Below are positions 2,909 through 63,340 of a DNA stretch of 64,000 nucleotides, piece after piece. Location: positions 29,698,001-29,762,000 of the forward strand of contig OZ024741.1 in NCBI GenBank assembly GCA_964016885.1, read 5' to 3'. The DNA is from Eledone cirrhosa. Its lineage: Eukaryota. The translations under genes were made by a program, and so were the position numbers. Below the pieces are notes generated by a model, which was not told the DNA's origin, did not search any database, and worked only from the letters and a program-made list of their open reading frames with translations. How positions within the stretch are numbered: the stretch's first letter is position 1; the number at the start of each line of letters is the position of its first letter.

Positions 2909-3743
2909 GATCTTTTAAAATAATGTTATATCTATCTATCTATCTATCTCCGGATGGCATAGACGTGCTTCACATCGGCTCCGCGAATATTGGAGATATT
3001 ACGTGTTAACAGTAAGTGTTTGTCTGTATTATTGCGTTACTGTGTTAATTAACCCCCTTGCCTGGGTCTTCGGACATTAGGGTTAATTTATTTCACCCCT
3101 TTATTTATTTCATCCTAAAACTCTTGCAATTGTCTCTACGCTAGTGGTAATGGAAGCCATTACCACAGGTAACGATGACACGCCCACTAAACAAACTGAA
3201 GGAGAGCGGGTAGCTGAGGCAACAAGCCACCCTACTGAAAGAATAATGATTATTAGAAACATTGAAAAAATGGAACCTAACCCTAATGAAAAAAATGTGA
3301 AAAAAATTAACTCGTAGCAATTGCCAAAATTAATGGATGACGTTTCGACTTTTCACGGCGCCACGCCCACCAGAAAAGGTGAAAGAGAAGTAGTAGCTGT
3401 GACTACAAGTCTCTCGGATAATGAAAATATAAGTGAAGATTTTGAAAAAATGGAGTCTAACTCCAAAGAAAAAAAAATGTGAACGAATACACCAACATAA
3501 ATAACACAAACACAACAAAAACAACTTTCGCACAGACAACAAAAAAATCTATAATATATACACCTATTGACTTAACTGCCGCCAGAGAGAAACTGGCAGA
3601 AGCAAAAAAACACATAGTCTTGGGGGAGAACGGAATATTTTCCATTAATTCCCCCCCCAGAATTCAAGAAAACGAGACTAGAAAACACTGTTCTGTTTAG
3701 AACAGTCCTAAACCACACGAGAAAGCCAGCACAGCCCAGCCAA

Positions 3744-4904: not shown

Positions 4905-5143
4905 ACAGGACGTGAGCCCCCCCCCCCCCTGTTTAAAACCGTTAAATCGCGTCCTCTTGAAAGATTTCCCCATAACCTCCCCTCTCCCTGACACAACTCC
5001 AAATACCCCAACCCACCACACTCGGATACCCCCACACAACCACAAAACATCCCTCCACCCAACACACCCGACCCCATGGAAATTACACAACCCGGAGAGG
5101 TAGGTGCTTTTCTTTCTTCACTTTCAACACCAAAATAGATCAA

Positions 5144-8100
5144 TTGAGAGTTCGCTGTTTGAATGCGCGTGGCCTGGGCTCAGCTTGGAAGCAAGCAAAG
5201 CTTCTAAGTGAACTCAGGTCACGAAGTATAGATGTGATGGTTGTTTGCGAGAGTCGGATCAGCAGCGTGCGACAGCTGGCTCCCGCCTTCGATGACTTTG
5301 AGATGCACGCATCTCTCTGTCAACCCGGAGGCGGGGATGGGATTGCCGTACTGCTGGATAAACGTCTGGCTCTCGACGTACAGATTGTTCACTCGGACCC
5401 GGGGGGGGGGGGGTCGATTACTGGTGCTGGACGTCGGAGGCGGTGAAGGCGGGGCTTTCAGACTGGTCGGTCTTTATGCCCCCTTCGGGGCTGAAAGAGC
5501 CGACTTCTTCCAGCATCTGGAGACTTTTCTAGGAACGTCGCGTTCCCTGCTTTTAGTGGGGGACTGGAATGGAATCCTAGATGCGCGTTGGGACTATGCA
5601 GGGGCATGTCCCGATAGAGGCGGGTGTAGCAGCCTCAAGGGGTTACTCCATCGATTCGACCTGGTCGATAGAGTTCGACTAGATTTTCCAACTGTGCCAA
5701 CCTGGACCTGGGTAAACCGCAGTGGTCAATCTAGATCGTACCTAGATAGGTTTTTGGTTAGGAGTAAGGATAGGGACGTATTTAGTTGTCCAGCATTGCT
5801 CATGGTTGGCTATTCAGATCACAAATTAGTGACCTGCGTGGTCAACCGTGATAGAACACATAGACAGGGTCCCGGTTACTGGAAGATGAACTTGTCCTTG
5901 CCGGCAAAGGAAGCTTACAGGAACCGGATTAGTAGCTTAGTTATGATGCGGTTGACGGGAGCGATCGTCAACAGCAGGTGGTGGGTATCTCTAAAGAGAG
6001 AGATTAGAGTAAGTTCGATAGGTTACAGTAAGGAACTAGCGGCGAATAGAAATAGGAGGGAAAGGGAGTTAACAGATATACTAGAAGAGGCGATTAGGAG
6101 CGGAGACGTGGCCAGAGTGTTAGCGTCGAGAACGGCGTTGAGCCAGTTCTTTGACTTGAAGCACGAAGGCTGCGTTGTCCGAAGTAAAATACGTGCTTTA
6201 GGAAACGAGGGGACCAAAGCTGTTAGCTGGGCCCGCGTGACAGAAGCCAAGAGTAGGATTAAATCCACCATTCGGTCTTTGCGAGACCAGGATGGACGGG
6301 TGATCCTTGAACCTGAGCGGATGTGCGAGGCCTTTCAAAGGCACTTTGCTCGACTGTTCGGAGGAGGCGGGGGGCCGGACGGGTATGTGGACTTCGGTCC
6401 ATACCTCGACGGTCTACCGCGTCTTTCGAGCGGCAAAGCGGAGTGCTGCGAAAGGCCAATCACAGCCACTGAAATCGGGGAAGCGCTCAGCCAATGCAGC
6501 AGACGCAAATCTCCGGGTCTCGATGGTCTACCATACGAACTTTATTTAGCTATGCCGGTCTTGTTCTCCGAACTCCTCGAGGCTGTCTATTGCAACTGGC
6601 AACAGAACGGGAGAATTCGCTGTTCTGTGACCAAGGGCGTAGTCACGTTAGTGAGGAAGGACGACAGCAAGGGGGACGACTTAAGTAACTTTAGGCCCAT
6701 AACTCTGCTGAATGCAGAGTTACAGATTTTGGCCAAGGTGTTGGCGAAGAGGTTGGCGCTTGTGGTGGGTGGTTTGGTGGGAGACGCGCAGACATGCGCT
6801 ATCCCGTCCAGGTCCATTCACGACAACCTCCACCTCATGCGATACATCGTAGAGAGGGTTGGGAACGAACCCGGCTTTGGTGGGGCCCTGATCAACTTGG
6901 ATCAATCTAAGGCGTTCGATAGGGTTGACCATGGTTTCCTGGATGCGGTGCTAGCGGCGGCGGGCTTCGGACCCGTTTTCAGGGGCTGGATTTCTGCCAT
7001 GCACAGTGGTAACTCTGCTCTAGGGTTAAAGTAAACGGCTACCTCTCGGAGCCGTTTCAAATCACCCGGTTAATCAGGCAGGGGTTCCCCCTCTCCTCCT
7101 TTCTGTACGTATTGGCTCTCGAGCCACTGCTGCGGAAGTAGGAGTTGCTGCGGGGCATACCCCTGGAACCGGGATTGCACAAAGAGGTCTCGGACTATGC
7201 CGACGACGTAACAGTAATGGTGGCGGACGCCTCGAAAATTGGGGCGATCGCCACCCTACTGGAGGAATACGAAAGGCTGACGTGGGCTAGGCTGAACAGG
7301 GACAAGACAGTCGGTTTGCAACTCGGAACGTGGAGGGGCAAACCGATGCCGTTAGACGGTGTCGTCGGGGGGTGGACGGAGGGCCCGGTGAAGCTGCTCC
7401 GGGTCTGGTTTGGACCGGACCTCCAGGTGGAGAAGAATTGGGGCGACGTGAGGAGCAGGGCGTTTGCGTTGACCCAGAAGTGGGCCAAGTGCAAACTATC
7501 ACTGAAAGGTCGGGCGGAGGTGGCGAACGCTTACATAGTGTCCGTCATCTACTACCGCCTGACCGTCGTGCCTTGCCCTAAGGAAACGCTCACCATCATG
7601 GAGCGCATGCTCTTCCAGTTCCTCTGGAAGAAGCGGCCTCCCATGGTGAGGAGATCCATCTGCTGCCAGCACCCTTCGAAAGGAGGGCTGGGTATGCCGT
7701 GGCTGTTGATGCGCAGGCACGCATTGAGGCTACGGCATCTACAGGTATTCCTCACCGGTCAGCCGGTGTGGGCCCCGTTTGTGAGGCGAGCCTTCTCACA
7801 GCTCGTCTCGCTCACCGAGCTGCAATCCTGGGTGAAGCAAAGACCGAGAAAACTGGGCAACTGGCACACCGAGTGTGCCCAGGCGCTCACGGCTCTCTGG
7901 GAAGCGGACCCGACTATCAGTGGAGAATCCACCTCGACATTCTATAGAGGGCTGGTGGCTAGCAGGGGCGACGACACCCTTGGAGAGTCGCTAGGCATGG
8001 AGGAGGACGAACTGGCCAGCTTGTTCGGTAGAACTTTCGGCCCGGGACCCATGGACAACTTCCAGAGGTCCCTAGCCTGGCAGTGCTACTGGGGGGCTCT

Positions 8101-8578
8101 GCCCGTTCGAGAAAAGCCCTACAGACACGGGCGCCCGGACAGGGATCCCGCGAAAAAGATCTGTCCCAGATGCGTGCGCGACGAGAAAACCGTTGCGCAC
8201 GCACTAGTACACTGCCCGGGCGTTGCCGATCTGTGGGGCTACGTCGAACGACTGCTGTCGCGTGTGGCGCCGATGCGATTGGCCGCCGAGTCTGTGGTGA
8301 ACATCAAGCCGCCTCCTCCCTTCAGAAATGAAGCAGAGGCGGTCTTTCTGTGCGTAATAGCCATGATGAAAGAGGTTGTGTGGTTGACGCGCCTGAAAGG
8401 TCTGAGGTCGGGTGACTTTCTCTCCGGCCAACACCTGGTTTACTTCTTCCGATACCACTTCGGAAGAAGGATCAGGATGGAGAGAGAAGTGCTTGGCCCT
8501 AGACAGTTTTATGAAAGGTGGGTGAAAGAAGCGAGAATGACTCGTGTAAATGGGCCTTCTCTCTACATTGTTCTGTAG
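5144..8578 (+). pseudogene. Tx1 ORF2 (APE endonuclease + reverse transcriptase + C-terminal Cys/His motif), disrupted
   Basis: LNARGL, GDWN, SYLDRF, SDH (APE); KSPGLDGLPYE, FRPITLLN, LDQSKAFDRVDH, RQGFPLSS, YADD (RT); CPRC..HALVHC. Frameshifts at the G-run 5401-5413 and near 7010-7020; in-frame TAG at 7139-7141. Confidence 0.93.
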
Positions 8579-22949: not shown

Positions 22950-23387
22950 CATATACATTAATGTGTATATTTGTATAACTGTATATACATAAAAGGACAT
23001 ACAGTTAAATATATATATGTTTGTAGTCGTGTGTGTGGCTGTCTTTTAACGCTAATTCCCGCGTGTGATACAGTGATTTTTTGCCGAGAAAAAATGCCAG
23101 ATTTTTAAAATAGATTAACTCCGGCGTGTGATGTCTTTTGTTTGGACTCGTTGTTTGAGCGTCAAATTGGAGTGCTCCGTGTTCGAGCAAGATTTTGGCC
23201 AGCTTACTAATTGGTCACATACTCAATCATTAGACATGTTTCTTTCAGATAGTCGGGGGGCATTGGAATAGTAAATATATAAAAGAATAAGAAAAGGTAT
23301 AACAGAAAGACGTAAGAAGGAATATCGATGCAAAGTCTGGCGACAAATATAGAGTGAGCACTGGCATAAAAGCAGAAAGACTATCGC

Positions 23388-23487
<100 letters not shown>

Positions 23488-23630
23488 CATATATATATAC
23501 TATACATATATATATAAGCATACATTGAAGTTGTAGCCGCATTAGAGCAGATGCCAATCGAATTGCTTGAGGCAGTCTCAAAACAATGTATTATACATAT
23601 ACATACATTTATATATAAATATATGTATGT

Positions 23631-23685
<55 letters not shown>

Positions 23686-23698
23686 TTCACTCTTTCAC

Positions 23699-23764
<66 letters not shown>

Positions 23765-23864
23765 CTGTATTTATCCCGGGTTCAATCGGAGGTAACCACA
23801 GTAAGTAAGGTACTCAATACATAGCAGAGTGTAAATATTTAATATAGAAATGGCTTTTACAATG

Positions 23865-23914
23865 GCTTTCCTGATGATATCCTCCTAATGAAACAGTTCT
23901 AGTCCTGTAGAAGC
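23865..23914 (+). ncRNA. Hammerhead-like motif in a PLE-type terminal repeat (duplicate near 29155-29204)
   Basis: GCTTTC-CTGATGA-tatcctcctaat-GAAA-CAG..CTG-TA-GAAGC; stem II is weak. Confidence 0.5.
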
Positions 23915-23915
23915 A

Positions 23916-23966
<51 letters not shown>

Positions 23967-24006
23967 ATGAAATATAAGAATCAAAGAACTGTTCAAAACA
24001 TTATTG

Positions 24007-24053
24007 TGCTTACAGCCGTTTCCTCGAAACCGAGCTTTGGATTCTTCGGAGCA
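24007..24053 (-). ncRNA. Minimal hammerhead-like motif with CCGAAGA core
   Basis: Minus strand TGCT-CCGAAGA-atccaaag-CTCG-gttt-CGAG-GAAA-CGGCTG-TA-AGCA. Confidence 0.5.
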
Positions 24054-24272
24054 ATTTATTAATGCATGGACAGTTATATGACCTCGTATATATATATATA
24101 TATAAATACACTTTGGCGCAATCTGGGTTACACATTCTGTAATTATGATAATAGACTATATATATATCAAGATAGAACAAGTTTTAAATTAGTTAAAACA
24201 TTATTCAACAGAGTACTCGAAACTTGGGCTAGTAGAGTATGACTATATTATAAAGAGTCGGGGCCCAATATA

Positions 24273-24318
<46 letters not shown>

Positions 24319-24411
24319 CATCATCATCATCATGATCTTCATTTAACGTCCATCTTCCACGCTAGCATGGGTTAAATATATATATATATATATTATATAT
24401 TGGGCTCCGAC

Positions 24412-24472
<61 letters not shown>

Positions 24473-24473
<1 letters not shown>

Positions 24474-25366
24474 GAGGTGTGTCAGAAACGTTCCAGGACT
24501 GATGTCACAAAAGATTAATTTCGAAACCAAACTTCACACTAAGAGTTTTCTCCTTCAAAGTAATTCCACTGGAGTCTAATGCACTTTTCCATCCTTTTCT
24601 GCCCCGCTTGCATGCACTCCTGGGAGGATTCATCCGGGATCCTCCGCAGTTCCGTCGTCACGGCCTTTTTGATGTCGTCCACGTCTTCAAAACGGGTCCC
24701 CGCCGGGTCGTACTCGAAGATCCATGACTCATCACCGGTGATGACTGTCACTAGCAAGTCTGGTTCGGTTTCAAGACGCTCGAGGATGTCCTGGTACACT
24801 TGCATGCGTCGACCCTTCTGGTCATTGTTCTGCAATGTTGGCACCATTTTCGCGCAGACTTTCCGCATGTCCAAATCTTCGGTGAGAATCTTCCAGACGC
24901 TGCCCAATTCATGCCCAGCTCATTTGCCATCAGTCGAACAGTCAGCCGACCATAGCTACGCACCATCTGCCTGACGAGCTCAACGTTGACCTCAGTACTG
25001 GTTGTTGAGGGCCTTCCGCTCCTGGGGTCATATTCCAAGTTCTTGCGTCCTTCTTTAAACCTCTTGCACCACTCAAAAACACGTGGGCCTGACATCGTCT
25101 CATCTCCATACACATGCTGCAGCAATTCCAGTGCTTCTGGCGAAGTTTTCAAGTGTTATCGTTGCTTTGTGCTCATTGCTTGACGGCCTGAAACAGAGGG
25201 CATGTATATAACATTATGAAGAAAAAGGTTTGATCGCTTCAGAGAGCTAAGATTACAGTACATACTCCAGGGGGATTACTTTTAAGGAGAAAACTCTTAG
25301 TGTGAAGTTTGGGTTTGAAATAAATCCTTTGTGACATCAGTCCTGGAACTTTTCTGAGGCACCTCG
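24473..25366 (-). mobile_element. Mariner (Tc1/mariner) internally deleted element
   Basis: ~100-bp imperfect TIRs starting CGAGGTG, TA flanks; HTH region (RVFEWCKRFKEGR..DPRSGRPST), KVCAKMVP, ITGDESWIFEYDP joined directly to GTRFEDVDDIK, so most of the DDD domain is missing. Confidence 0.95.
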
Positions 25367-25484
25367 TATATAAGTGTGTGTGTATATCCGGGGTTAAATT
25401 GGCGGTAACAACAGTAAGTAAGGTACTCAATACATAGCAGAGTATAAATATTTAATATAGAAAGGCCATTTCTATATTAAATAA

Positions 25485-25570
<86 letters not shown>

Positions 25571-26303
25571 AGAGAAAGGGGTAGATAGATAGATATGTGT
25601 GTATGTGAGTGTATGTATCTGTATAAATATGTATGTGTATAGGGACATAAACTGAGTCTTAAATTTTCTAGCCGGATTCTCAGAGGGTTCATTAATTTTG
25701 TGAGATGATTCCCCCGTGCCTCCAGCAAACCCAATCACCTCCCACAAGTGATTTCTGAAAAAAAAAACTTTTTATTTTTCCTTTTTTCTGTCGCTTTGTT
25801 TTGTTATCTTCCGTGAAGTAGAAGTGTCACACGTCGTACCATTATCTACATATCTTCCTAGCAACACTTGTCTACATACTTTTACTTATGCTCTCCCAAT
25901 ATGGCATAGTCCTGGAAAAGTTTTGTGATCTTCTTGCTATTTCAGGCTTTACAATTCTAACGAATAATTTATGAAGAATTATTTTCTACATTGTCACAGA
26001 AGGAGGCATACTGATACGAAAATGACTGCTAAACACTTTAATGTGTACTTTCTCTCTCTCTTGTAACCATAACGCTGGCGATCTATATTTCAGTATTAAT
26101 GAAACGAACTAGATAATAGAATTTAAATTAAATTAAACCAGGCCGAAATATCGATAAATACTAAGTGAGGAATCATTACAAGAACACAGATTGTACTTGA
26201 ATTCATTTAGAATGAACGTTTAATATATTTGTATTAAATGTGCGTATATTAAATTTTCACTGCCACATGGTTCTTTGATATTTATTTTTTTTAAATTATA
26301 AAG

Positions 26304-26413
<110 letters not shown>

Positions 26414-26478
26414 GTATATATACATACATATATATATATATATACGTATATATACATACATATATATATATATATATG

Positions 26479-26547
<69 letters not shown>

Positions 26548-26597
26548 GTATATATACATACATACATATATATATATATGCATATATATATATATAT

Positions 26598-26673
<76 letters not shown>

Positions 26674-26775
26674 CTATATATATACGTACATATATATATA
26701 CATATATATACATATATATACATATACATACATATATATATATATATATATACATATATATATACATATATATAC

Positions 26776-26862
<87 letters not shown>

Positions 26863-26985
26863 TATACATATGTATGTATGTGAGTATGTATGTATTATCT
26901 ATGTATGTATGTCTGTGTGTATTTATGTGTCTATGTCTGTCTGTATATATATATATATATATATACAGCTATATATAAATATAGG

Positions 26986-27040
<55 letters not shown>

Positions 27041-27853
27041 TAGGGTAGATATGTAACTCTGATAGCTGTATACATATGTATATGTATGCATATATATATA
27101 TACATATTATATTTTTATTTATTTAAAAAAAAATTTTTTAAACATATAACTAGATACATTGACTTCGAGAAGGAAATCTGGGAAAATATGACACGCCAAT
27201 ATACGGCCAGCAATCTTTATATTCGTGAGATTATGTTTGATTGTAGATACAACTACAACTACATATGTGCCTGTATAAATGGAAGAACCATAGTTCTATA
27301 AGTATGTCTGTCTTCTTACCTACCTATGTCGTACGTACATGTATGTGTTTGTTTAACTCGCTATATCGATCTTGCGGCAACAATTACTGGTTTCATAGCT
27401 CCAACAATTTACAGATATATTAAGAAAGTGTGATTGCATCTTATGACTTTTGATTTCCTCACGAACGCATCAAATTATCAACACTCTTCACATTAAATAC
27501 GCGAAAATAAGCACAAACGTACACATTAGCATACATACATATATACATACATTCATAGATGCTTACATATATGCATACATACACAAATACATACAAACAT
27601 ACGTGCATACATACATACGTACGTACATAGATACATAGATAAATACACTTTAAAATGAGATACAGAATGTCTTACATATATACGATGATTTGCAGTACCA
27701 TATACGGCAATGTAGACATTCACACTAACACACAAACACACTCACACACACACTCATGCATACATCTTTAGAAATTTTGCCTATTATATCATGCATATAT
27801 ATGTATACATATAAATGGTATGTGTATACATATATATATGTGAGGTGTATATG

Positions 27854-28634: not shown

Positions 28635-28714
28635 AGACGTAAGAAGGAATATCGATGCAAAGTCTGGCGACAAATATAGAGTGAGCACTGGCATAAAAGC
28701 AGAAAGACTATCGC

Positions 28715-28807
<93 letters not shown>

Positions 28808-28950
28808 CATATATATATACTATACATATATATATAAGCATACATTGAAGTTGTAGCCGCATTAGAGCAGATGCCAATCGAATTGCTTGAGGCAGTGTCA
28901 AAACAATGTATTATACATATACATACATTTATATATAAATATATGTATGT

Positions 28951-29001
<51 letters not shown>

Positions 29002-29014
29002 TTCACTCTTTCAC

Positions 29015-29054
<40 letters not shown>

Positions 29055-29205
29055 CTGTATTTATCCCGGGTTCAATCGGAGGTAACCACAGTAAGTAAGG
29101 TACTCAATACATAGCAGAGTGTAAATATTTAATATAGAAATGGCTTTTACAATGGCTTTCCTGATGATATCCTCCTAATGAAACAGTTCTAGTCCTGTAG
29201 AAGCA

Positions 29206-29254
<49 letters not shown>

Positions 29255-29579
29255 ATATATATATATGAAATATATGAAATATAAGAATCAAAGAACTGTT
29301 CAAAACATTATTGTGCTTACAGCCGTTTCCTCGAAACCGAGCTTTGGATCCTTCGGAGCAATTTATTAATGCATGGACAGTTATATGACCTCGTATATAT
29401 ATATATATATAAATACACTTTGGCGCAATCTGGGTTACACATTCTGTAATTATGATTATAGACTATATATATATCAAGATAGAACAAGTTTTAAATTAGT
29501 TAAAACATTATTCAACAGAGTACTCGAAACTTGGGCTAGTAGAGTATGACTATATAATAAAGAGTCGGGGCCCAATATA

Positions 29580-29619
<40 letters not shown>

Positions 29620-29727
29620 TGTATATATAATATCATCATCATCATCATGATCTTCATTTAACGTCCATCTTCCACGCTAGCATGGGTTAAAATATATATA
29701 TATATATATTATATATTGGGCTCCGAC

Positions 29728-29798
<71 letters not shown>

Positions 29799-29802
29799 TA
29801 TA

Positions 29803-30699
29803 CGAGGTGTGTCAGAAACGTTCCAGGACTGATGTCACAAAAGATTAATTTCGAAACCAAACTTCACACTAAGAGTTTTCTCCTTCAAAGTAATTCCACT
29901 GGAGTCTAATACACTTTTCCATCCTTTTCTGCCCCGCTTGCATGCACTCCTGGGAGGATTCATCCGGGATCCTCCGCAGTTCCGTCGTCACGGCCTTTTT
30001 GATGTCGTCCACGTCTTCCAAAACGGGTCCCCGCCGGGTCGTACTCGAAGATCCATGACTCATCACCGGTGATGACTGTCACTAGCAAGTCTGGTTCGGT
30101 TTCAAGACGCTCGAGGATGTCCTGGTACACTTGCATGCGTCGACCCTTCTGGTCATTGTTCTGCAATGTTGGCACCATTTTCGCGCAGACTTTCCGCATG
30201 TCCAAATCTTCGGTGAGAATCTTCCAGACGCTGCCCAATTCATGCCCAGCTCATTTGCCATCAGTCGAACAGTCAGCCGACCCATAGCTACGCACCATCT
30301 GCCTGACGAGCTCAACGTTGACCTCAGTACTGGTTGTTGAGGGCCTTCCGCTCCTGGGGTCATATTCCAAGTTCTTGCGTCCCTTCTTTAAACCTCTTGC
30401 ACCACTCAAAAACACGTGGGCCTGACATCGTCTCATCTCCATACACATGCTGCAGCAATTCCAGTGCTTCTGGCGAAGTTTTCAAGTGTTATCGTTGCTT
30501 TGTGCTCATTGCTTGACGGCCTGAAACAGAGGGCATGTATATAACATTATGAAGAAAAAGGTTTGATCGCTTCAGAGAGCTAAGATTACAGTACATACTC
30601 CAGGGGGATTACTTTTAAGGAGAAAACTCTTAGTGTGAAGTTTGGGTTTGAAATAAATCCTTTGTGACATCAGTCCTGGAACTTTTCTGAGGCACCTCG
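29803..30699 (-). mobile_element. Second copy of the deleted mariner, within the duplication
   Basis: Same TIRs, deletion and flanks as 24473-25366, with extra 1-bp insertions. Confidence 0.95.
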
Positions 30700-30819
30700 T
30701 ATATAAGTGTGTGTGTGTATATCCGGGGTTAAATTGGCGGTAACAACAGTAAGTAAGGTACTCAATACATAGCAGAGTATAAATATTTAATATAGAAAGG
30801 CCATTTCTATATTAAATAA

Positions 30820-30850
<31 letters not shown>

Positions 30851-31593
30851 AGGGAGAGAAAGGGGGTAGATAGATAGATATGTGTGTATGTGAGTGTATG
30901 TATCTGTATAAATATGTATGTGTATAGGGACATAAACTGAGTCTTAAATTTTCTAGCCGGATTCTCAGAGGGTTCATTAATTTTGTGAGATGATTCCCCC
31001 GTGCCTCCAGCAAACCCAATCACCTCCCACAAGTGATTTCTGAAAAAAAAAAACTTTTTATTTTTCCTTTTTTCTGTCGCTTTGTTTTGTTATCTTCCGT
31101 GAAGTAGAAGTCTCACACGTCGTACCATTATCTACATATCTTCCTAGCAACACTTGTCTACATACTTTTACTTATGCTCTCCCAATATGGCATAGTCCTG
31201 GAAAAGTTTTGTGATCTTCTTGCTATTTCAGGCTTTACAATTCTAACGAATAATTTATGAAGAATTATTTTCTACATTGTCACAGAAGGAGGCATACTGA
31301 TACGAAAATGACTGCTAAACACTTTAATGTGTACTTTCTCTCTCTCTTGTAACCATAACGCTGGCGATCTATATTTCAGTATTAATGAAACGAACTAGAT
31401 AATAGAATTTAAATTAAATTAAACCAGGCCGAAATATCGATAAATACTAAGTGAGGAATCATTACAAGAACACAGATTGTACTTGAATTCATTTAGAATG
31501 AACGTTTAATATATTTGTATTAAATGTGCGTATATTAAATTTTCACTGCCACATGGTTCTTTGATATTTATTTTTTTTAAATTATAAAGTGTG

Positions 31594-31722
<129 letters not shown>

Positions 31723-31929
31723 GTATATATACATACATATATATATATATATACGTATATATACATACATATATATATATATATATGCACATATATATAT
31801 ATATATAATATATTATATATATATATATATATATACACGTATATATACATACATACATATATATAATATATATGCATATATATATATATATATATAATAT
31901 ATATATATGTATATGTATATTATATATAT

Positions 31930-31975
<46 letters not shown>

Positions 31976-32079
31976 CTATATATATACGTACATATATACA
32001 TACATATATATACATATATATACATATACATACATATATATATATATATATATACATATATATATACATATATATATAC

Positions 32080-32156
<77 letters not shown>

Positions 32157-32288
32157 TATACATATGTATGTATGTGAGTATGTATGTATTATCTATGTAT
32201 GTATGTCTGTGTGTATTTATGTGTCTATGTCTGTCTGTATATATATATATATATATATATACAGCTATATATAAATATAGGAATTATA

Positions 32289-32356
<68 letters not shown>

Positions 32357-33178
32357 GTTATAGGGTAGATATGTAACTCTGATAGCTGTATACATATGTA
32401 TATGTATGCATATATATATATACATATTATATTTTTATTTATTTAAAAAAAAAATTTTTTAAACATATAACTAGATACATTGACTTCGAGAAGGAAATCT
32501 GGGAAAATATGACACGCCAATATACGGCCAGCAATCTTTATATTCGTGAGATTATGTTTGATTGTAGATACAAACTACAACTACATATGTGCCTGTATAA
32601 ATGGAAGAACCATAGTTCTATAAGTATGTCTGTCTTCTTACCTACCTATGTCGTACGTACATGTATGTGTTTGTTTAACTCGCTATATCGATCTTGCGGC
32701 AACAATTACTGGTTTCATAGCTCCAACAATTTACAGATATATTAAGAAAGTGTGATTGCATCTTATGACTTTTGATTTCCTCACGAACGCATCAAATTAT
32801 CAACACTCTTCACATTAAATACGCGAAAATAAGCACAAACGTACACATTAGCATACATACATATATACATACATTCATAGATGCTTACATATATGCATAC
32901 ATACACAAATACATACAAACATACGTGCATACATACATACGTACGTACCATAGATACATAGATAAATACACTTTAAAATGAGATACAGAATGTCTTACAT
33001 ATATACGATGATTTGCAGTACCATATACGGCAATGTAGACATTCACACTAACACACAAACACACTCACACACACACTCATGCATACATCTTTAGAAATTT
33101 TGCCTATTATATCATGCATATATATGTATTACCATATAAATGGTATGTGTATACATATATATATGTGAGGTGTATATG

Positions 33179-35689: not shown

Positions 35690-36240
35690 AATACATACAC
35701 AAGCACAATAACAACAAACACATATAAAAACACACTAGTAAACTAAGATAGAATACAATAACCAAAACACAGTCACCCAAACACGAACACACATCAAACA
35801 CTATACACACACGCAAACGCATACGCAGAGAAGAAGACGATAAATAAATTAAATAAATAAATAAACAGATTAAATAAAGATGGCGTAGACATACAATACA
35901 ACAGGAGGAAACATAATAGCACATCTGCCAAGACCGTCAGTGGTGCTATTATGTTTCCTCCTGTTGTATTGTATGTCTACGCCACCACTGACGGTCTTGC
36001 AGATGTGCAACGAAAGAACTTTGTTAGACTATATATATGTGTTTGTGTCTATATATCTGTCTTTTTGACCGTTGGTCAGTCAATGGTAAACATTGAGGAG
36101 AGAATAAATTAACTGATATAACAGATACAGAAGCGAAAACCAACCAAAACTGTGAGTGCGTTCTGTTATTAATTCTGGCAATATTATTACAATATGACCC
36201 TCACAAAGTATAACAATATATATAAATATTGTTATACTGT
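35690..36240 (+). mobile_element. Penelope-like 3' UTR/pLTR remnant with decayed hammerhead
   Basis: Ends ATGACCCTCACAAAGTATAAC like 40543-40564; contains CTGACGG..TTGCA-gatg-TGCAAC-GAAA-GAAC-TT. Confidence 0.65.
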
Positions 36241-36924: not shown

Positions 36925-37105
36925 AGTGTTTATCCCAGGTTCAAACGGTGGTAACCACAGTAAGTAAAGAAGGTACACAATACATAGCAGAGTATAAATA
37001 TTTAATATAGAAATGGTTTCTATACAACTAGAACTGTTTCATTCGGGAGAAATCATCAGGAAGCCCAGGGCTTCCTGATAATTTCCTGGTTTCTCCTAAT
37101 GAAAG
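36925..37105. mobile_element. PLE-type terminal repeat (family also at 23761-23914, 25379-25480) with a minus-strand hammerhead core and foldback
   Basis: Shared GGTAACCACAGTAAGTAA..AATACATAGCAGAGT; minus strand GCTTC-CTGATGA-tttctcccgaat-GAAA-CAGTTCTAG. Confidence 0.6.
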
Positions 37106-37262
37106 CAGTGATTATTTGGTTAAACTTAAACTAATCTGTTCTTAAAATAAATATTTGCTCTACGGGTGTATATATATTTTATATATTTATATATATAATC
37201 GTTATTCAGCCCTCTTCGGATTTAATCTTCACATTCATTATTACCAGATATACAGACATACT

Positions 37263-38032: not shown

Positions 38033-38039
38033 GATATAT

Positions 38040-39482
38040 ATACATATATATATATATGTATACAGACGCACAGTAGTATGTATATATATACATACATGCA
38101 CAGATATATATATGTACGTATGGATTCATGGATTCACCGAACATTTATTATAATGTTCGGCGTGTTTGTAAACATACATAATTATATTTAAGTAACAGCC
38201 GTACTAAGAGTGAGAAATGAAATTTCGGTTCATTTTTTCTGTTTATCGTTTTCGGTGCCCCGGCCGATTAACTCACTCGATATGCAAATTAAGCTGCTCA
38301 GCCGTTAATATGCAAAAGGAAAGTATATACTTTCAGACGTTCAATCATCTGGCAGAAAGGTATTCGTTACTGACGATAGCTAATAAGCTTGAAACTAGTA
38401 CATCGTTCCTTTGTCAGTGTTGAACAAATGAGCAACGATGGTTGCTAGGCACTGTACGGCTTAATTCGGGATGTTTGTTTACCAACACACCGAGCATTAT
38501 ATTTAATGTTCGGTGAATCCATACGTACATATATATGTGTGCATGTATGTATATATATATATATATACATACTATTGTGCGTCTGTATACATATATGTAT
38601 GTAGGTATACATACTTATATTTAAGTAACAGCCGTACTAAGAGTGAAAAATGAAATTTCGTTTCATTTTTTCTGTAAATGGTTTTCGGTGCCCCGGCCGA
38701 TTAACTCACTCGGTATGCAAATTAGGATGCTCAGCCGTTAATGTGCATAAGGAAAGTATATACTTTCAGACGTTCAATCATCTGGCAGGAAGGTACACGT
38801 TGCTGACGTTGAACAAATGAGCAACGATGGTTGCAAGTCATTGTACGGCTTAATTCGGGATGTTTGTTTACAAACACACCGAGCATTATAATGAATGTTC
38901 GGTGAATCCATACGTACGTATATATGTGTGCATGTATGTATATATATATATATACATACTACTGTACGTCTGTATACATATATGTATGTACGTATAAATA
39001 CTTATATTTAAGTAACAGCCGTACTCAGAGTGAGAAATGAAATTTCGTTTCATGTTTTCTGTTTATCGTTTTCGGTGCCCCGGCCGATTAACTCACTCGA
39101 TATGCAAATTAGGCTGCTCAGCCGTTAATATGCATAAGGAAAGTATATACTTTCAGACGTTCAATCATCTGGCAGGAAGGTATACGTTGCTGACGATAGC
39201 TAATAAGCTTGAAACTAGTACATCGTTCCTTTGTCAGTGTTGAACAAATGAGCAACGATGGTTGCTAGACACTGTACGGTTTAATTCGGGATGTTTTTTT
39301 ACCAACACACCGAGCATTATAATGAATGTTCGGTGAATCCATACGTACATATATATATATATGTGTGCATGTATGTATATATATATATATATACATACTG
39401 CTGTACGTCTGTATACATATATATATGTACGTATACATACTTATATTTAAGTAACAGCCGTACTAAGAGTGAGAAATGAAAT
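38040..39482 (+). mobile_element. Retrozyme-like tandem array: about 3 units of ~430 bp plus a 5' inverted segment
   Basis: CTGACG cores at 38370, 38803 (3' half of the ribozyme deleted) and 39190; 38040-38172 is an inverted copy of part of the unit. Confidence 0.85.
39184..39226 (+). ncRNA. Minimal type I hammerhead ribozyme (best copy in the array)
   Basis: ACGTTG-CTGACGA-t-AGCT-aata-AGCT-t-GAAA-CTAG-TA-CATCGT; stem I extended by CTGGCAGGAAGG / CCTTTGTCAG. Confidence 0.82.
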
Positions 39483-39488
39483 AAGAAG

Positions 39489-39530
<42 letters not shown>

Positions 39531-39533
<3 letters not shown>

Positions 39534-39792
39534 AAAAGATAACAAGGACGATTGGTTTCTCCTTCATTACATTTATTCTAATGAAGGAGTAACCCATCGT
39601 CCTAGTTATCTTTTCAATATAATAAACTCTGTATAGCTCTACACCTCGACACACAAGTGAACCTACAGTAACTCCAAGTTACACTCCCTATATATATATA
39701 TATATTGAAAAGATAACAAGGACGATGGGTTACTCCTTTCATTAGAATAAATGTAATGAAGGAGTAACCCATCGTCCTTGTTATCTTTTCAA
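39531..39792. repeat. Two ~88-bp palindromes with mutually inverted 9-nt loops
   Basis: 39531-39617 has loop CATTTATTC; 39705-39792 has loop GAATAAATG. Confidence 0.93.
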
Positions 39793-39816
39793 TATATATA
39801 TATATATATATATATT

Positions 39817-40564
39817 GTTATACTTTGGGAGGGTCATGTTGCCAATAAGAAACACACGCACCAATTGCTTTCACTTCAATTTATTATATATTTATACATT
39901 TATAAATTTACAAATCTATAAATTTCTGGTTGGTCTATTTTTATTTCTATGTTCTCTAATTTACCCTTGTGTTCTATCTAGAACACAAAATAGAACACAA
40001 GGGTAAATTAGAGAACATAGAAATAAAAATAGAATCTACACACAGAAAAGATGCAATGTTTAGACAAATTACAGAGGCAATAAACATAAAAGAATTACAT
40101 CCAAAATTAAATAGAAAATATGAGTGGAACAGCAACATCACAACTTACAATTAAGGACAAAATGAAAACACACACACACATAGAACAAACAACCAACCAA
40201 TAACATGTAAATAAATAAATAAATAAACAAATAGATAAATGAACATAAACACACACAGACACCCGGACGTGGCGCATGCGCAAACTGAGCACACAACACA
40301 CACACAGAAACAAAATGGCGTAGGACAGAAGAAAGGAAAGGCACAGAAACAAAGAAAGGAATCCCCAGTCACTGAAGAGGTCACAGAATGTGTGACGAAA
40401 GGACTATGACTATATATAAACAACTACCTGTTTGTGGAACCAACTAACCAACCAGAAATTTATAGATTTGTAAATTTATAAATTTATAAATATATAAAAA
40501 ATTGAAGTGAAAGCAACTGGTGCGTGTGTTTCTTATTGGCAACATGACCCTCCCAAAGTATAAC
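39817..40564 (+). mobile_element. Penelope-like element 3' part: GIY-YIG C-terminus, 3' UTR, hammerhead, ~120-bp inverted ends
   Basis: ORF 39969-40154 DAMFRQITEAINIKELHPKLNRKYEWN; 39817-39935 inverted at 40447-40564. Confidence 0.85.
40367..40411 (+). ncRNA. Minimal hammerhead ribozyme in the PLE terminus
   Basis: AGTCA-CTGAAGA-g-GTCACA-gaatg-TGTGAC-GAAA-GGAC-TA-TGACT. Confidence 0.8.
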
Positions 40565-40621
40565 ACTATCGGTTTCAACAAACGATTTCAGATAAAGAAT
40601 CTTTCTAAACAAATTCAGAAA

Positions 40622-40853: not shown

Positions 40854-40965
40854 ATAGGAAAAAGTATGACCCTGACGGCAGAGCTCAAGCCGTTTCGACG
40901 GCTATTTCTGGAAATAGCCGTCGAAACGGCTTGAGCTCTGCCGTCAGGGTCATACTTTTTCCTAT
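40854..40965. repeat. Perfect palindrome with 55-bp arms and a 2-nt loop
   Basis: Loop TG at 40909-40910. Confidence 0.95.
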
Positions 40966-54932: not shown

Positions 54933-54983
<51 letters not shown>

Positions 54984-54984
54984 C

Positions 54985-55612
54985 AAATAACGAAACGAAA
55001 TTAAATTTCGTTTCGTTTGTAACTCACTTTTGTATGACTGACGCTTAAACAATTAAGTTAAAGATGTACATCCATATATGTATACTGAAATACTAGTATG
55101 TATATGAATACACACACGTATATATATGTAGATGTACCAAGTTTTTTTCACTGGTCACTTTACTGTGAGTGGCCAGCTATTCTGTATGTAAACACACAGA
55201 CAAACCGGTTTTTAGAGTCATACTGTATCGTCTCCGTTGAACCGGTACTTACTCACACTCTATGCAAATTAGTCTGCCCACTACTAATTTTCATAGAAAA
55301 AGCTATATAACGATATGTGCTTTTACGATTCTCTAGAGAGGCCGGAAGATAGGTAAATATTGCTGATGAGTTGTAACAACAACGAAACTAGTTCAATATT
55401 CCTTGTCTGGCTTTCTGGAGAATAGAGGAAAGGTGTTTCCTCAAAAACCAGTATGACTCTAAAAACCGGTTTGTCTGTGTGTTTACATAGCTGGCCACTC
55501 ACAGTAAAGTGACCAGTGAAAAAAACTTGGTACATCTACATATATATACGTGTGTGTATTCATATACATACTAGTATTTCAGTATACATATATGGATGTA
55601 CATCTTTAACTT

Positions 55613-55617
<5 letters not shown>
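54985..55617 (+). mobile_element. Diverged retrozyme-like monomer with a 5' inversion (~170-bp inverted arms 55052-55225 / 55449-55615)
   Basis: Shares motif order and helices with the 38-39 kb unit; flanked by (TA)n. Confidence 0.78.
55356..55400 (+). ncRNA. Minimal type I hammerhead ribozyme
   Basis: AATATTG-CTGATGA-GTTGT-aaca-ACAAC-GAAA-CTAG-TT-CAATATT: 7-bp stem I, 5-bp stem II, intact core, GUU triplet. Confidence 0.9.
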
Positions 55618-55688
<71 letters not shown>

Positions 55689-55961
55689 AGCTTCCAACAG
55701 AAATGGTCGAATTCTTTAAGGGTATGTCAATATTTATTTATAAAACTGATATATTATATTTTATCTGATAAAAGCGCACCATAATTTGACTTGGTGTCCT
55801 TGAAATATGTATAATGAATTAAATATGGTTTTATACATATAGTTTCCATTTGTTAATATCGTATTTTTACTCCAATAATTTGTTGAGTGCTTCATATCAG
55901 CTATAAAAATATGTTCGTGTTGTATTCCAACAATTAAAATATAACTTCTACATATATATAT

Positions 55962-58900
55962 CTAAGGCGGGTAAAATTCCCGAGATCCATGGACGAGTTC
56001 TCTCCAGCGGTCTCTGTCCCTCATTATCGCTGCCATATCCTGCATCTCCAACAGACCAGTGTCTGTCCTTAGGGCATCAACATATGTTAACCTTGGTCTT
56101 CCTCTTCTAGTGTGTCCATGTAGGGGCTCCCAAAGGAGCACTGAGTGCAATGTCAACTCTGGATGTCGGTGAGCATGTCCAACCTACCTCAGTCTCCTCT
56201 GTGTCACTTTTGAGCTGACTCTTGGGATGCTCCCATACAGCTCTGAGTTTTTCATCCTCAGCGTATACTGATTAATGTTCAGAGCCATCCTCAACATTCT
56301 CGTGTAGCACCCATCCACCATCTGAGTGAGTTTCTTGGTCAGTGTCCAAGTCTCAGAACCATACAGCAGCACAGACTCCACTACAGCAATGAAGAGGCGG
56401 ATTTTCAGGTCTCTACGAAGGTCCGACTTCCACACCGATCTCAAGCTGTGGCACGCCGCCCAGGCCTTGCTCTTCCTCTCAACCACATCATCCTCCGTAT
56501 TCCCAATCTTTGCTCCCAAATACAGGAAGTCCTCAACCAATTCCAGCGGCTTCCCGCCTACATTAGTGATCCCCTCTGGCTTCTCAACATTCTCTACCAG
56601 ATATTTTGTTTTAGTCTCATTCATTCTCAGCCCCACACTCATCGACACAGTCTCAACCTCCCGCATCAAATCCTCTGCCTCCTTCACTGTATTTGTCACC
56701 AAAACTATGTCGTCGGCAAATTCAGCATCCGATACCTTTTTCGCCCCAACTCTCCTGCTCTGAGCCGGTGCTACAGTAAAGCCAGAGTCCTGGTGTTTCT
56801 CTAGTGCAAGGCGCATACAATAGTCCACTACGATGACAAAAAGGTAGGGAGCCAATGTATCTCCCTGGAGCACTCCAGCCAGTATCTCAAAGAACTCTGT
56901 CATCCCATCAGGTGTAATGACTTGGGCTTTGGTGTTGGTGTAGAGCAGTGATATCAGGTCCACTATCCTCTTGGGGATTCCATAAGCCTGTAAGATCTTC
57001 ATCAGGCAGTAACGGTCCACAGAATCAAAGGCCTTCCTAAAGTCAATGAAAACCATGACCGCAGGAAGGCACTTTGCTCTAGCTCCCTCTAATATCCTCC
57101 TCAGCATCAGGATGTGACTGGTGGTTGATCTACCCTCTCTGAAGCCGTTCTGGTGGTCCCTGTGCTTCTTCTCCATCTCAGGCCGGATCCTGTTAAGAAT
57201 CATCCTGTTGAGGGTCTTTGCCACAAGTGACGTCAGTGAGATCCCCCGGTAGTTGTTGGTGTTAGAGAGATCTCCCTTCTTTGGCTCTGGGACGATGTTA
57301 CTGATCCTCCACTGATTCGGGGCAACTCCTTTCTCCAGTGCCCCGTTACAGAACCCCAGGATGATATCATCAAAATCACACCTCTTCATCACCTCTGATG
57401 CCACTCCATCTTCTCCATGAGCCTTGCCCTCCTTGATCTTCTTCTTGGCTCTCTGAAGCTCCTCTATGGTGAAGGGCTCTGTCTCAACATCCAGTTCCTC
57501 AAACAGCCGCCTGATCTCCCCTGTGCTCTGGGCTGTGGAGGGTGGCTCTCCTAGTAGGGTCCTAAAATGGTCTAGCCATTTCCTCTTCCTATCCTCGGGC
57601 CCCGTTCCCTGGATCTGACTCGAACACCTTTTCTTCCTCCCTGTGATCTCGTTGATGATCATCCAGCTCTCCTTACATCCAGATCTGTCAACCGCTCTCT
57701 CCACACTTCTGATCTTCTCTATCAGTGCCTCCTCTCTGACCTCAGTGTAAGCGGTACAGAGCTCTTCCCTCATCACCTCCACAGTCTCCATCCTCTCCTC
57801 CGTAGGATCAGCATAGAATTGGTCCCTGGCAGCTTTCAGGTGTTCTCTGGCTGCACACACTTTGGGGTTTGCAGAGCTGACGTGCTTCCCTTTGTTCTTT
57901 TTCCTCGGCACCAGGGTTTCACTTGCTTTCGCCACTGCATTGGTGAAGTGCCCGTACCTCCTCGTCACACTCTCCTCAGTCCATCCAATCTCTCTCTCCT
58001 CTGACTCTCCACACAGAGCACTAAACCTGTTTCTCACTTCCACTGTGAACCTCTCCTGTAGCTTATCATCTTCCTTGAAAGCTCCCCAGTCATAGATTGT
58101 TCTCCGGGGCTGAGCCTTGCTCTTTCTTAAGCTCACGCGGACCTCACTCATAACAAGCCGGTGGTCACTACCCAGTGTACTGAAATAGCTGTATGGTTCC
58201 GTGTTCAGAACACTATTCCGCCACTTTATCCTCACCAGAATGAAATCAATCTGGGACTTGGACAGGTGCACATCTGAGATATAGGTCCACATCTTGCCCA
58301 GATTCTTCCTAAACATTAGGTTGGTCACCATCAAGTTCGCCTCCAGAAGGGTGTCTCTTAGTAGTCTTCCATTTCGGTTGGTGTTGTTATGGAAGTACCA
58401 GCAAGGATCTTCACTGCCCTCCTTACTCAGATGTGCATTGAAGTCCCCCAAAACAAGCAGGATATTGTGTGCCTGAGTGGTGTTGACAGCTCTACACACC
58501 TCCTCATGGAACTCCTCCGCATTCACATCACTGTCCCCCTCGGTTGGACTATAGGCTGAGATGACTGTCAGTCTTGGGTTTCCATTGAAGGTCACCCTCA
58601 ACACTCGCGGGGAGATAGGCATTATTTCCCTCACCAACAGATTGGTTTTTGCACTGAACACAAAACCCACTCCTCCCACTGCAGCATTTGTTGTGTTCTT
58701 CACTGCCGATGTAGTGATGAGCTGGCTCTTCCTCCCGATTATCACACTCCTCACGGGCTCATCGTGTAGAATCCTGTGTTCTTGGATCGCAAGTATCTGT
58801 ATACCACTCTCCTCGAACAGATGTCCCAACTCCTCTCTCTTCTCCAGCGTCCGAATAGTCCTCACATTCAAAGTGCCCATTTTGATGGCTCCTCTGCAGG

Positions 58901-59096
58901 ACAAAACTGCATTCTTTATATTTGTCTCAGAGACAGCTGATCCATCATCCACTGGTCCCCTCTGTGGCTCTAAGCCAGCAGAGTCATAACGACCAGGCTG
59001 CTCCTTGACAGTGTAATTAGGGGCTCTAACCCTAGTGCTGTTAGATCGACTCTCCATATTTCTTTTCAATGGCTGACAATACCTTACCGGCGCCAC
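55962..59096 (-). CDS. RTE APE endonuclease-reverse transcriptase; one in-frame TAG at 56184-56186
   Basis: TLNVRT, IQEHR, AYSPT, LGDFNA, QIDFIL, SDH; NYRGISL, FIDFRKAFDSV, GVLQGDTLAPYLF, FADD, FLYLG. The frame continues past the stop: VGHAHRH..LLWEP.HG..RRGRP..TYVD. Confidence 0.92.
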
Positions 59097-59260
59097 TCGA
59101 ATAAGGTAGTTATTTAACCCATAAATGGAGCCCTAACAGGTACTACCACCCCGGGCCAGGGCAGACCTGGGAGTCATGACAACTAAGAGGTAACTCCACA
59201 TTCCCCACATCTCCTGAACTCCCGAACTGGAGCCTTGACACTGGATGTAGTTTAATGTCA

Positions 59261-59261
<1 letters not shown>
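55962..59261 (-). mobile_element. Full-length RTE-clade LINE
   Basis: TSD ACATATATATAT at 55950-55961 and 59262-59273; ~165-200-nt 5' UTR; single APE-RT ORF. Confidence 0.94.
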
Positions 59262-59302
<41 letters not shown>

Positions 59303-59378
59303 GTACTCTCTCTGTATATATATATCGAGTACAATATATACATATATATATACATATATAAATATATATATCGAGTAC

Positions 59379-59533
<155 letters not shown>

Positions 59534-59542
59534 GTATAATCT

Positions 59543-60142
59543 CAGGAAGGTATACGTTGCTGACGATAGCTAATAAGCTTGAAACTAGTACAGCATTCCT
59601 TTGTCAGTGTTGAACAAATGAGCAACGATGGTTGCTAGAAACTGTACACCTTAATTCGGAATGTTTGTTTACAGACACACCGAGCATTATAATAAATGTT
59701 CGGTGAATCCATACGTACATATATATACATTCTACTGTACGTCTGTATACATATATGTATGTACGCATACATACTTATATTTAAGTAACAGCCGTACTAA
59801 GAGTGAGAAATGAAATTTCGTTTCATTTTTTCCGTTTACCGTTTTCGGTACCCCGGCCGATTAATTCACTCGATATGCAAATTAGGCTGCTCAGCCGTTA
59901 ATATGCATAAGGAAAGTTTATACTTTCAGACGTTCAACCATCTGGCAGGAAGGTATACGTTGCTGACGATAGCTAATAAGCTTGAAACAAGTAAAGCGTT
60001 CCTTTGTCAGTGTTGAACAAATGAGCAACGATGGGTGCTAGAAGCTGTACGGCTTAATTCGGGATGTTTGTTTACAAACACACCGAGCATTATAATAAAT
60101 GTTCGGGGAAACCATACGTACATATTTATATATGTGTGCATG

Positions 60143-60206
<64 letters not shown>

Positions 60207-60308
60207 CTACTGTACGTCTGTATACATATATGTATGTACGTATACATACTTATATTTAAGTAACAGCCGTACTAAGAGTGAGAAATAAAATTTCCTTTCA
60301 TTTTTTTC

Positions 60309-60312
<4 letters not shown>
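59543..60312 (+). mobile_element. Second retrozyme-like array (about 1.9 units, period ~403 bp)
   Basis: Same unit as 38-39 kb; hammerhead cores at 59560 and 59963. Confidence 0.85.
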
Positions 60313-60350
<38 letters not shown>

Positions 60351-60354
<4 letters not shown>

Positions 60355-60478
60355 CTGCCATGTCCTGCATCTCCAACAGCGATAATGAGGGACAGCGATA
60401 ATGAGGCAACAATAATGAGGGACAGAGACCGCTGGAGAGAACTCGTCCATGGATCTCGGGAATTTTACCCGCCTTAAA
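60351..60478 (+). mobile_element. RTE 3'-end mini-insertion with a 5' inversion
   Basis: 60351-60379 matches 56026-56054 on the same strand; about 60411-60477 is the reverse complement of about 55963-56027. Confidence 0.88.
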
Positions 60479-60504
60479 TAGAGATGTATATATATATCGA
60501 GTAC

Positions 60505-60733: not shown

Positions 60734-60890
60734 GGGATACTATTTATGGTTATGTATATATTAAAACTTCTTATAGTTATGTATATTTTAAACCCTAAAC
60801 AGTGAAGGTCAGTAATTTCTTACAACCTATTAGCAGTAAGATAAATACCTCAATGTAATAATTTCAGTTGTTCTACAGAGCAGTTATATA

Positions 60891-63340
<2,450 letters not shown>

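Follow-up and report, generated by a model that had tools for sequence, protein, structure and literature searches.

How did a non-coding repeat that carries a hammerhead ribozyme come to lie, as short multimers, at two places of the same stretch of the Eledone cirrhosa genome? The stretch analysed here (hereafter the window) is 64,000 nucleotides of contig OZ024741.1. An initial annotation of it had proposed that the unit of an array at 38-39 kb recurs at 59543 as about 1.9 copies, that this second array begins just 5' of a hammerhead, ends close to where the first one ends and lies in (TA)n, and that reverse transcription of RNA, helped by Penelope-like elements (PLEs), explains these copies better than unequal crossover does.

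Results

Two arrays of the same unit

The unit of the 38-39 kb array was indeed found again at 59543, on the same strand and with a divergence of 5.8-8.8% per unit pair. The two arrays are called array 1 (38174-39483) and array 2 (59543-60314), and their repeat family A. They are made of the following parts:

38035..38179, minus strand: inverted arm of array 1, head-to-head with the direct arm
38174..39483, plus strand: direct arm of array 1, 3.12 monomers
59264..59542, no strand: left (TA)n tract, target of array 2; any target-site duplication is unreadable
59543..60314, plus strand: array 2, made of 1.76 family A monomers (433-bp unit), inverted arm not observed
59801..59832, plus strand: internal copy of the 3' hairpin in array 2
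60276..60314, plus strand: terminal hairpin and T-rich tail of array 2
60315..60352, no strand: right (TA)n tract of array 2

The full monomer is about 433 bp long with a GC content of 36-37%; it is repeated head-to-tail and is non-coding, any long frame being absent. Array 2 holds 1.76 such units and not 1.9, the earlier figure having been obtained because the raw length was divided by a unit carrying a deletion. Its 5' boundary lies 17 nt upstream of the CTGACGA core of a hammerhead, 4 nt inside the outer stem I, in agreement with the start that had been annotated. The (TA)n setting applies in full to array 2, which is bordered by (TA)n on both sides, but not to array 1, where 16-17 other bases separate the right end from (TA)n. 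Random array ends with shared flanks had been named as the mark of segmental duplication. When the 1-kb flanks of array 1 were compared with those of array 2, there were no matches in any of the four flank pairs; segmental duplication is therefore not the origin of the two copies.

A second, diverged retrozyme-like family, which had escaped the initial annotation, is present between the two arrays, at 54980-55621. It is called family B:

54980..55225, minus strand: inverted arm of family B, ends in (TA)n
55226..55621, plus strand: direct arm of family B, with an octamer at 55262, a TATA-like box at 55304 and a hammerhead core at 55363, ends in (TA)n

Families A and B are 61% identical over 223 columns, in the part that covers the candidate promoter and the hammerhead, and the architecture of the hammerhead is the same in both. 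The inverted arm of family B duplicates 55449-55621 and continues to the homologous hairpin and tail.

A type I hammerhead motif in each unit

An intact family A unit contains one type I hammerhead motif, with the CTGACGA core, a GAAA, and a long stem I interrupted by an internal loop. Stem II consists of four pairs over a U-U mismatch, and stem III of two pairs with a palindromic sequence. Metazoan hammerheads cleaving in dimeric form are described as typically having such a short palindromic stem III (PMC4209133). Cores are found at 38370, 39190, 59560 and 59963, and one further core, that of the third hammerhead of array 1, has been removed by a 44-nt deletion. The two motifs of array 2 are:

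59543..59607, plus strand: hammerhead motif 1 of array 2, near intact, core at 59560, predicted cut after 59590
59942..60010, plus strand: hammerhead motif 2 of array 2, damaged

In motif 1, the outer stem I is clipped by the 5' end of the array. In motif 2, the first pair of stem I is broken and loop III is not palindromic any more.

A looser type I descriptor detected four hammerheads in the window, all of them within retrozyme elements, where 30 block shuffles gave 0.13 on average, and a stricter one detected two, versus none in 20 of 20 shuffles. Rfam gave no match at gathering score over the window; among the 150 of 231 E-value matches listed, the sole hammerhead was HH9, on family B (55345-55416), with 37.7 bits versus a gathering score of 52. 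Matches to Rfam microRNAs were rejected as TA/TG-repeat noise.

Comparison of the two families suggests that the hammerhead is conserved as a structure: 5 of the 15 pairs were changed on both sides, a number reached in 0 of 500 shuffles, while slid controls gave 0 to 1 such changes; in this test, the structure was drawn from the same sequences, and all five changes are contributed by one sequence, family B. Folding of the monomer as a circle gave z values of -6.7 and -8.7 (40 dinucleotide shuffles each) with 65-67% of the bases paired, a stability to which TA-rich stretches contribute. In public data, a stem I subfamily of the hammerhead, with several linked-looking changes at 39165-39265, was observed in all 4 runs examined; these changes appear to preserve pairing, and an alternative small hairpin is found after position 39248.

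A candidate promoter upstream of the ribozyme

Upstream of the ribozyme, an octamer and a TATATA are spaced by 42 nt in both families. In array 2, this module reads:

59875..59922, plus strand: octamer (59875-59882), then a TATA-like box 42 nt on; candidate snRNA-type promoter

The octamer lies within the longest block (12 nt) that is conserved in the two families. As a background, the octamer is found 4 times in the other 60,902 bases, i.e. 0.028 per unit length. TATA-like words are common in the TA-rich DNA of the window, and the TATA-like box of the array 2 copy is mutated to TTTATA. In the spacer between octamer and TATA, comparison of A and B revealed no identical block of 5 bases or more and no conserved proximal sequence element. 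Variants of the module exist in public reads: 2,868 reads lack 8 nt at the TATA box, and 101 reads lack 87 nt across the octamer.

From these sequence features, we consider the module as a possible snRNA-type promoter. In vertebrates, an octamer followed by a TATA box is reported to mark Pol III transcription (PMC9652321). No T4 run is found in either body, but none was also expected with a probability of 0.43 and 0.33 in shuffles, so that T4 avoidance was rejected as a sign of Pol III, being not significant. The common end lies 7 nt past a T6 run. If active, the module would contradict the view that metazoan retrozymes are transcribed by read-through, and would provide a reason for their tandem form.

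Family A is abundant in public sequence data

The repeat stretch is present, whole or in part, in 21 sequencing runs, with half of it or more in at least three among the 15 listed; none of these 15 is recorded as RNA sequencing, which says nothing about expression. Run X1 may be the one from which the window comes. Four of the 21 runs were examined: family A was represented by 11,348 contig records on 381 bp in run X1, by 90 contig records in X4, 15 in X7 and 79,518 reads in X19, where contig records, like summed contig depth, are no measure of copy number. In one organism, family A thus reaches a very high abundance, and it also occurs in others. With thousands of contig records in public data, its copies are not confined to this locus, and the dispersed nature that had been proposed for it is borne out. 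Pattern scans for the repeat in metagenome and viral contigs gave 0 matches.

A 3' end zone rather than a single 3' end

A common 3' end of the two arrays had been annotated. The ends are close, but they do not coincide: array 1 ends directly after GAGTGAGAAATGAAAT, and array 2 ends 23 nt past that point. Read in the sense of the ribozyme, the five element ends of the window fall at four different points of one zone of about 85 nt, which is closed by the conserved hairpin and the T-rich tail. The end of array 2 corresponds to the point homologous to the end of the family B inverted arm (score 74, versus a shuffle maximum of 42; 0 of 500 shuffles). Element ends share 2-4 nt of TA microhomology with the target.

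Outside the window, two of the four end points found support, and that of array 1 found none. Among the loose ends listed (six per run, 585 more being present), the exact end of array 2 followed by (AT)n was found in at least 33 contigs of run X1, so that this end does recur elsewhere, and at least 6,829 reads of X19 showed another end, located about 60 nt upstream and close to the end of the family B direct arm, before (AT)n. A pile of read ends at the array 1 end (15,421 + 10,896 = 26,317) was rejected as a restriction-site artefact, because the cut site of the RAD library, AATT, falls exactly there. The letter following AATT was a T in a fraction of 0.41 of this pile, versus 0.33 in the window; random joining predicts a similar split. 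As one of its members coincides with the library cut site, the pair of ends 23 nt apart could not be counted. We conclude that 3' ends fall in a zone where several points are preferred, the ribozyme cut site not being among them.

Inverted arms

Head-to-head inverted arms are found in two of the three elements of the window, array 1 and family B, and not in array 2. The strand changes in 7 of the 15 X19 read joints listed (41 others being present), with 26-74 reads each and breakpoints that are all different, any single read junction being a possible library chimera. In all 7 strand-changing joints, the length of the short side is the distance to the next AATT cut site; the head-to-head geometry is therefore fixed, and the junctions are away from cut sites. 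These inversions, in the window and in the seven read joints, agree with PLE insertion signatures, a comparison that the initial annotation had called for. PLE insertions are described as containing partial tandems, a 5'-truncated copy in inverse orientation and a tail of 30-40 bp (PMC8557442). For a purified PLE protein, nicking and extension of both strands were reported at AT-rich DNA, with internal initiation at a pair of adjacent stem-loop sites (PMC11167929). The inverted structures would arise if two cDNAs were primed on opposite strands.

Alleles of the units

The units of array 2 differ from each other at 16 of 280 sites (5.7%), about as much as units of different arrays do, and four allele sites separate array 1 from array 2 cleanly. 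For array 2, whose internal divergence is similar to that between arrays, only the four separating alleles speak for a single rolling template. The direct units of array 1 share alleles that are rare in X1 (about 1.5%, 0.2% and 0.1% of depth), whereas its inverted arm has the common alleles at both sites covered. One of the rare alleles is present in units 1 and 3 and absent from unit 2, a mosaic that a single pass round one circle leaves unexplained. The allele pattern of array 1 fits either one template per arm or an early local duplication, and local duplication may have lengthened this array. Reverse transcription is still preferred to unequal crossover as regards the unrelated flanks, the recurring ends and the inversions, but the length of array 1, with its shared rare alleles, may be due to crossover.

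Helper candidates in the window

Two elements with reverse transcriptase (RT) sequences lie close to array 2, together with a fragment of one of them:

55949..59263, minus strand: LINE, with an open 982-aa endonuclease and RT frame (56184-59132; RVT_1 E 9e-32)
60353..60488, plus strand: inverted fragment of the LINE 3' end, just right of array 2
61935..63287, minus strand: broken Hydra-type Penelope-like element, with RT motif YRDD, CxCX5C linker and GIY-YIG-like end

We take the LINE to be of the RTE type. The PLE remnant (61935-63287) is situated 1.6 kb from array 2. An exhaustive search with it returned 592 matches at E<=0.001, and it was matched by 9 of 9 long unnamed proteins (tblastn, best E 6e-28). 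Five of these proteins were inspected, and contained DKT-type (4 of 5 exact), RWR/RWK and CxCX5C motifs. Pfam, the protein atlas and the word-indexed search gave nothing useful for the remnant itself, nor did Pfam give anything for the nine long relatives. No hammerhead was found near this remnant in the descriptor scans of the window. Another remnant, at 39960-40151, is presumably PLE-like, as judged from a GIY-YIG-like C-terminus; it had no Pfam match, and no tblastn match from the nine long Hydra-type proteins. The abundant PLE remnants with hammerheads of the initial annotation thus come down to one remnant recognised by homology, with no hammerhead found nearby, and one that we assign by its presumed motif.

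RWR/RWK, DKT and CxCX5C are the motifs reported to define the Hydra clade, whose members target (TA)n and have been described from molluscs; the Hydra label of the 61935-63287 remnant comes from the comparison of motifs with that description, as none of its nine long relatives carries a name (PMC8557442). The tail, candidate promoter and hammerhead of the repeat were similar to 0 of 9 other repeats in the window, the LINE and both PLE-like remnants included. We therefore infer the helper from the insertion footprint, rather than identify it. The proposal of a PLE helper keeps the PLE-type inversions in its favour but has no sequence link among the repeats compared in the window, and a Hydra-clade PLE is the leading candidate.

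Other elements of the window

Several other structures were observed along the way. A short repeat with a minimal hammerhead-like core lies beside microsatellites at 23761-23918, 29051-29208 and 36926-37110; in the copy near 37 kb, the core is on the opposite strand after inversion. At 39816-40565, the presumably PLE-like remnant and a minimal hammerhead-like core (40372) are accompanied by inverted repeats (39816-39934 and 40447-40565), apparently also in a head-to-head architecture. Further palindromic or inverted-arm elements are found beside (TA)n at 35881-35984, 39532-39800, 40854-40965 and 60890-61518. A LINE-like element (3618-8578, plus strand) has long open frames, with a zinc-knuckle protein, an endonuclease and an RT in shifted frames. 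Finally, a near-identical tandem duplication (99-100%; 23308-27720 and 28635-33043), located around an N gap, may be an assembly artefact; it contains a transposase remnant with inverted ends.

Discussion

A retrozyme probably inserted by a PLE

RNA-level criteria aside, the repeat qualifies by its sequence as a non-LTR retrozyme, a known and common class. We think it likely that this non-coding retrozyme was copied from RNA into (TA)n by the RT and endonuclease of a PLE, a reading that we favour because of the clustered ends at a conserved hairpin, the head-to-head inverted arms and the TA targets. Transcription of the repeat would come first, perhaps driven by the octamer/TATA module that immediately precedes each ribozyme. 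Pairs of hammerheads with palindromic stem III would then excise the monomer of about 433 nt, to be circularised by a host ligase. The PLE protein would nick (TA)n on one or both strands, and reverse transcription would begin inside the RNA, at a few sites of the roughly 85-nt zone closed by the hairpin, some 200-280 nt beyond the ribozyme cut. Copying of a template longer than one unit would yield inserts of 1.8 or 3 units, and two cDNAs primed on opposite strands and joined 5' to 5' would yield the inverted arm. Counting against this scheme, array 2 lacks an inverted arm and contains a damaged second hammerhead.

The same helper might have used a linear, uncleaved multimeric transcript, in which case array 2 would be a full copy of a read-through RNA that begins at the transcription start and stops at the next unit's hairpin. 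This alternative overlaps with the preferred scheme, from which it differs in the excision of the monomer and in the copying of the longer template, and we view it as possible though somewhat doubtful. The 5' end of array 2 is located 29 nt downstream of the position at which the TATA-like box begins, away from the ribozyme cut site and where an snRNA-type start is expected; it is, however, a single 5' end, noticed after the fact, and no pile of 5' ends at this point appeared among the six loose ends listed per run. The units inside an array are hardly more alike than those of different arrays, and the anole PLE was found to use mainly unprocessed RNA, ribozyme mutants being still inserted (PMC11167929). 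Conversely, the hammerhead appears to be kept by compensatory change, and circles are reported as abundant for known retrozymes (PMC7229834).

The arrays are unlikely to be pseudo-LTR (pLTR) pieces of an autonomous PLE, in the form of tandem and 5'-truncated copies. PLE pLTRs do bear type I hammerheads and yield similar tandem and inverted structures (PMC8557442, PMC4209133), and retrozymes have been argued to derive from pLTRs (bioRxiv 10.64898/2026.07.22.740005). But the units follow each other head-to-tail with no coding sequence between them, the arrays have no RT and GIY-YIG frame and nothing in them is matched by the 9 long Hydra-type proteins, and 842 reads bridge unit end to unit start at the main junction. 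Mobilisation of the repeat RNA by the adjoining LINE (55949-59263), and not by a PLE, appears very improbable, even if this LINE has the only long open RT frame adjoining array 2 and has left a fragment of its 3' end beside the TA tract of the array. The repeat shows no 3' similarity to it (176 of 200 shuffles score as high), and both arms of family B contain the 3' zone, unlike twin-primed inserts. In LINE twin priming, the inverted part does not repeat the 3' end. We also give very little credit to a DNA-level satellite, spread by segmental duplication or circular DNA and grown by unequal crossover, with the hammerhead as a passenger. The rare alleles common to the direct units of array 1, together with the common alleles of its inverted arm, do point to a local duplication after insertion. 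Such a process would account for the length of an array and not for dispersal, and against it stand the unrelated flanks, the ends that recur before (AT)n, the many different inversion junctions and the apparent conservation of the RNA structure.

Returning to insertion by a PLE, the retrozyme might even be self-promoting, and we put this forward as a tentative extension. The U6/H1-like external promoter of a unit would serve the ribozyme of the next unit, and only templates of more than one unit, circles or read-through multimers, would carry the promoter along; a Hydra-clade protein would prime at the dedicated hairpin and on both (TA)n strands. If true, this would explain why the repeat moves as multimers.

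Comparison with known systems

The repeat resembles the metazoan non-LTR retrozymes described by Cervera and de la Pena in 2020 (PMC7229834) in being a short, non-coding tandem of low GC with one type I hammerhead per unit, and also in its short palindromic stem III, its self-paired predicted circle and the presence of PLEs in the same genome. The U-U at the base of stem II is as in axolotl HHR_Amex2. At 433 bp, the unit is larger than the 170-400 nt given in PMC7229834, and inside the range of 51-972 bp of bioRxiv 10.64898/2026.07.22.740005. Circles were demonstrated for the retrozymes of PMC7229834, whereas here they are predicted from the sequence; in the preprint, only 1 of 9 predicted retrozyme dimers was reported to cleave. 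The accessible text of these descriptions of metazoan non-LTR retrozymes does not mention clustered ends, inverted arms or insertion into (TA)n, all of which are present here. Metazoan retrozymes are also reported in a review (PMC7761336) as seemingly without a promoter and without a motif pointing to a helper, whereas families A and B keep the octamer/TATA module and the terminal hairpin.

Partial tandems, an inverted 5'-truncated arm, hammerheads and AT-rich or (TA)n targets are shared with PLEs, as described for the Hydra clade (Craig et al. 2021, PMC8557442) and for anole Poseidon in vitro (Frangieh et al. 2024, PMC11167929); alternative ends some tens of bases apart at a stem-loop may be a further likeness. 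Unlike PLEs, the repeat has no protein frame, and its ends are 23 nt and about 60-85 nt apart, where PLEs have a single tail of 30-40 bp. Its start zone is rich in U instead of AC, and the ends show TA microhomology, whereas the start site of anole Poseidon is described as not homologous to the cut DNA (PMC11167929). A third likeness is with newt satellite 2, also a tandem repeat with a hammerhead, and cited as carrying an snRNA-type promoter inside its unit (Coats et al. 1994, via PMC2220036), where family A has a candidate one. In the newt, transcription from this promoter is reported to be by Pol II, but in family A the octamer precedes a TATA-like box, an order that in vertebrates marks Pol III.

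The proposal that PLEs mobilise animal retrozymes is already in print, founded on the hammerheads they have in common, on co-occurrence and on the phylogeny of pLTRs. In the openly accessible main texts covered, we found no prior description of family A, nor of such an insertion footprint or promoter in retrozymes. What this locus adds is the insertion footprint, with its inverted arms, putative fixed priming zone and TA targets, a defined RNA hairpin, a candidate helper clade and perhaps a promoter built into the unit. The footprint and the candidate clade make the partnership between PLEs and retrozymes testable with the existing in vitro PLE assay.
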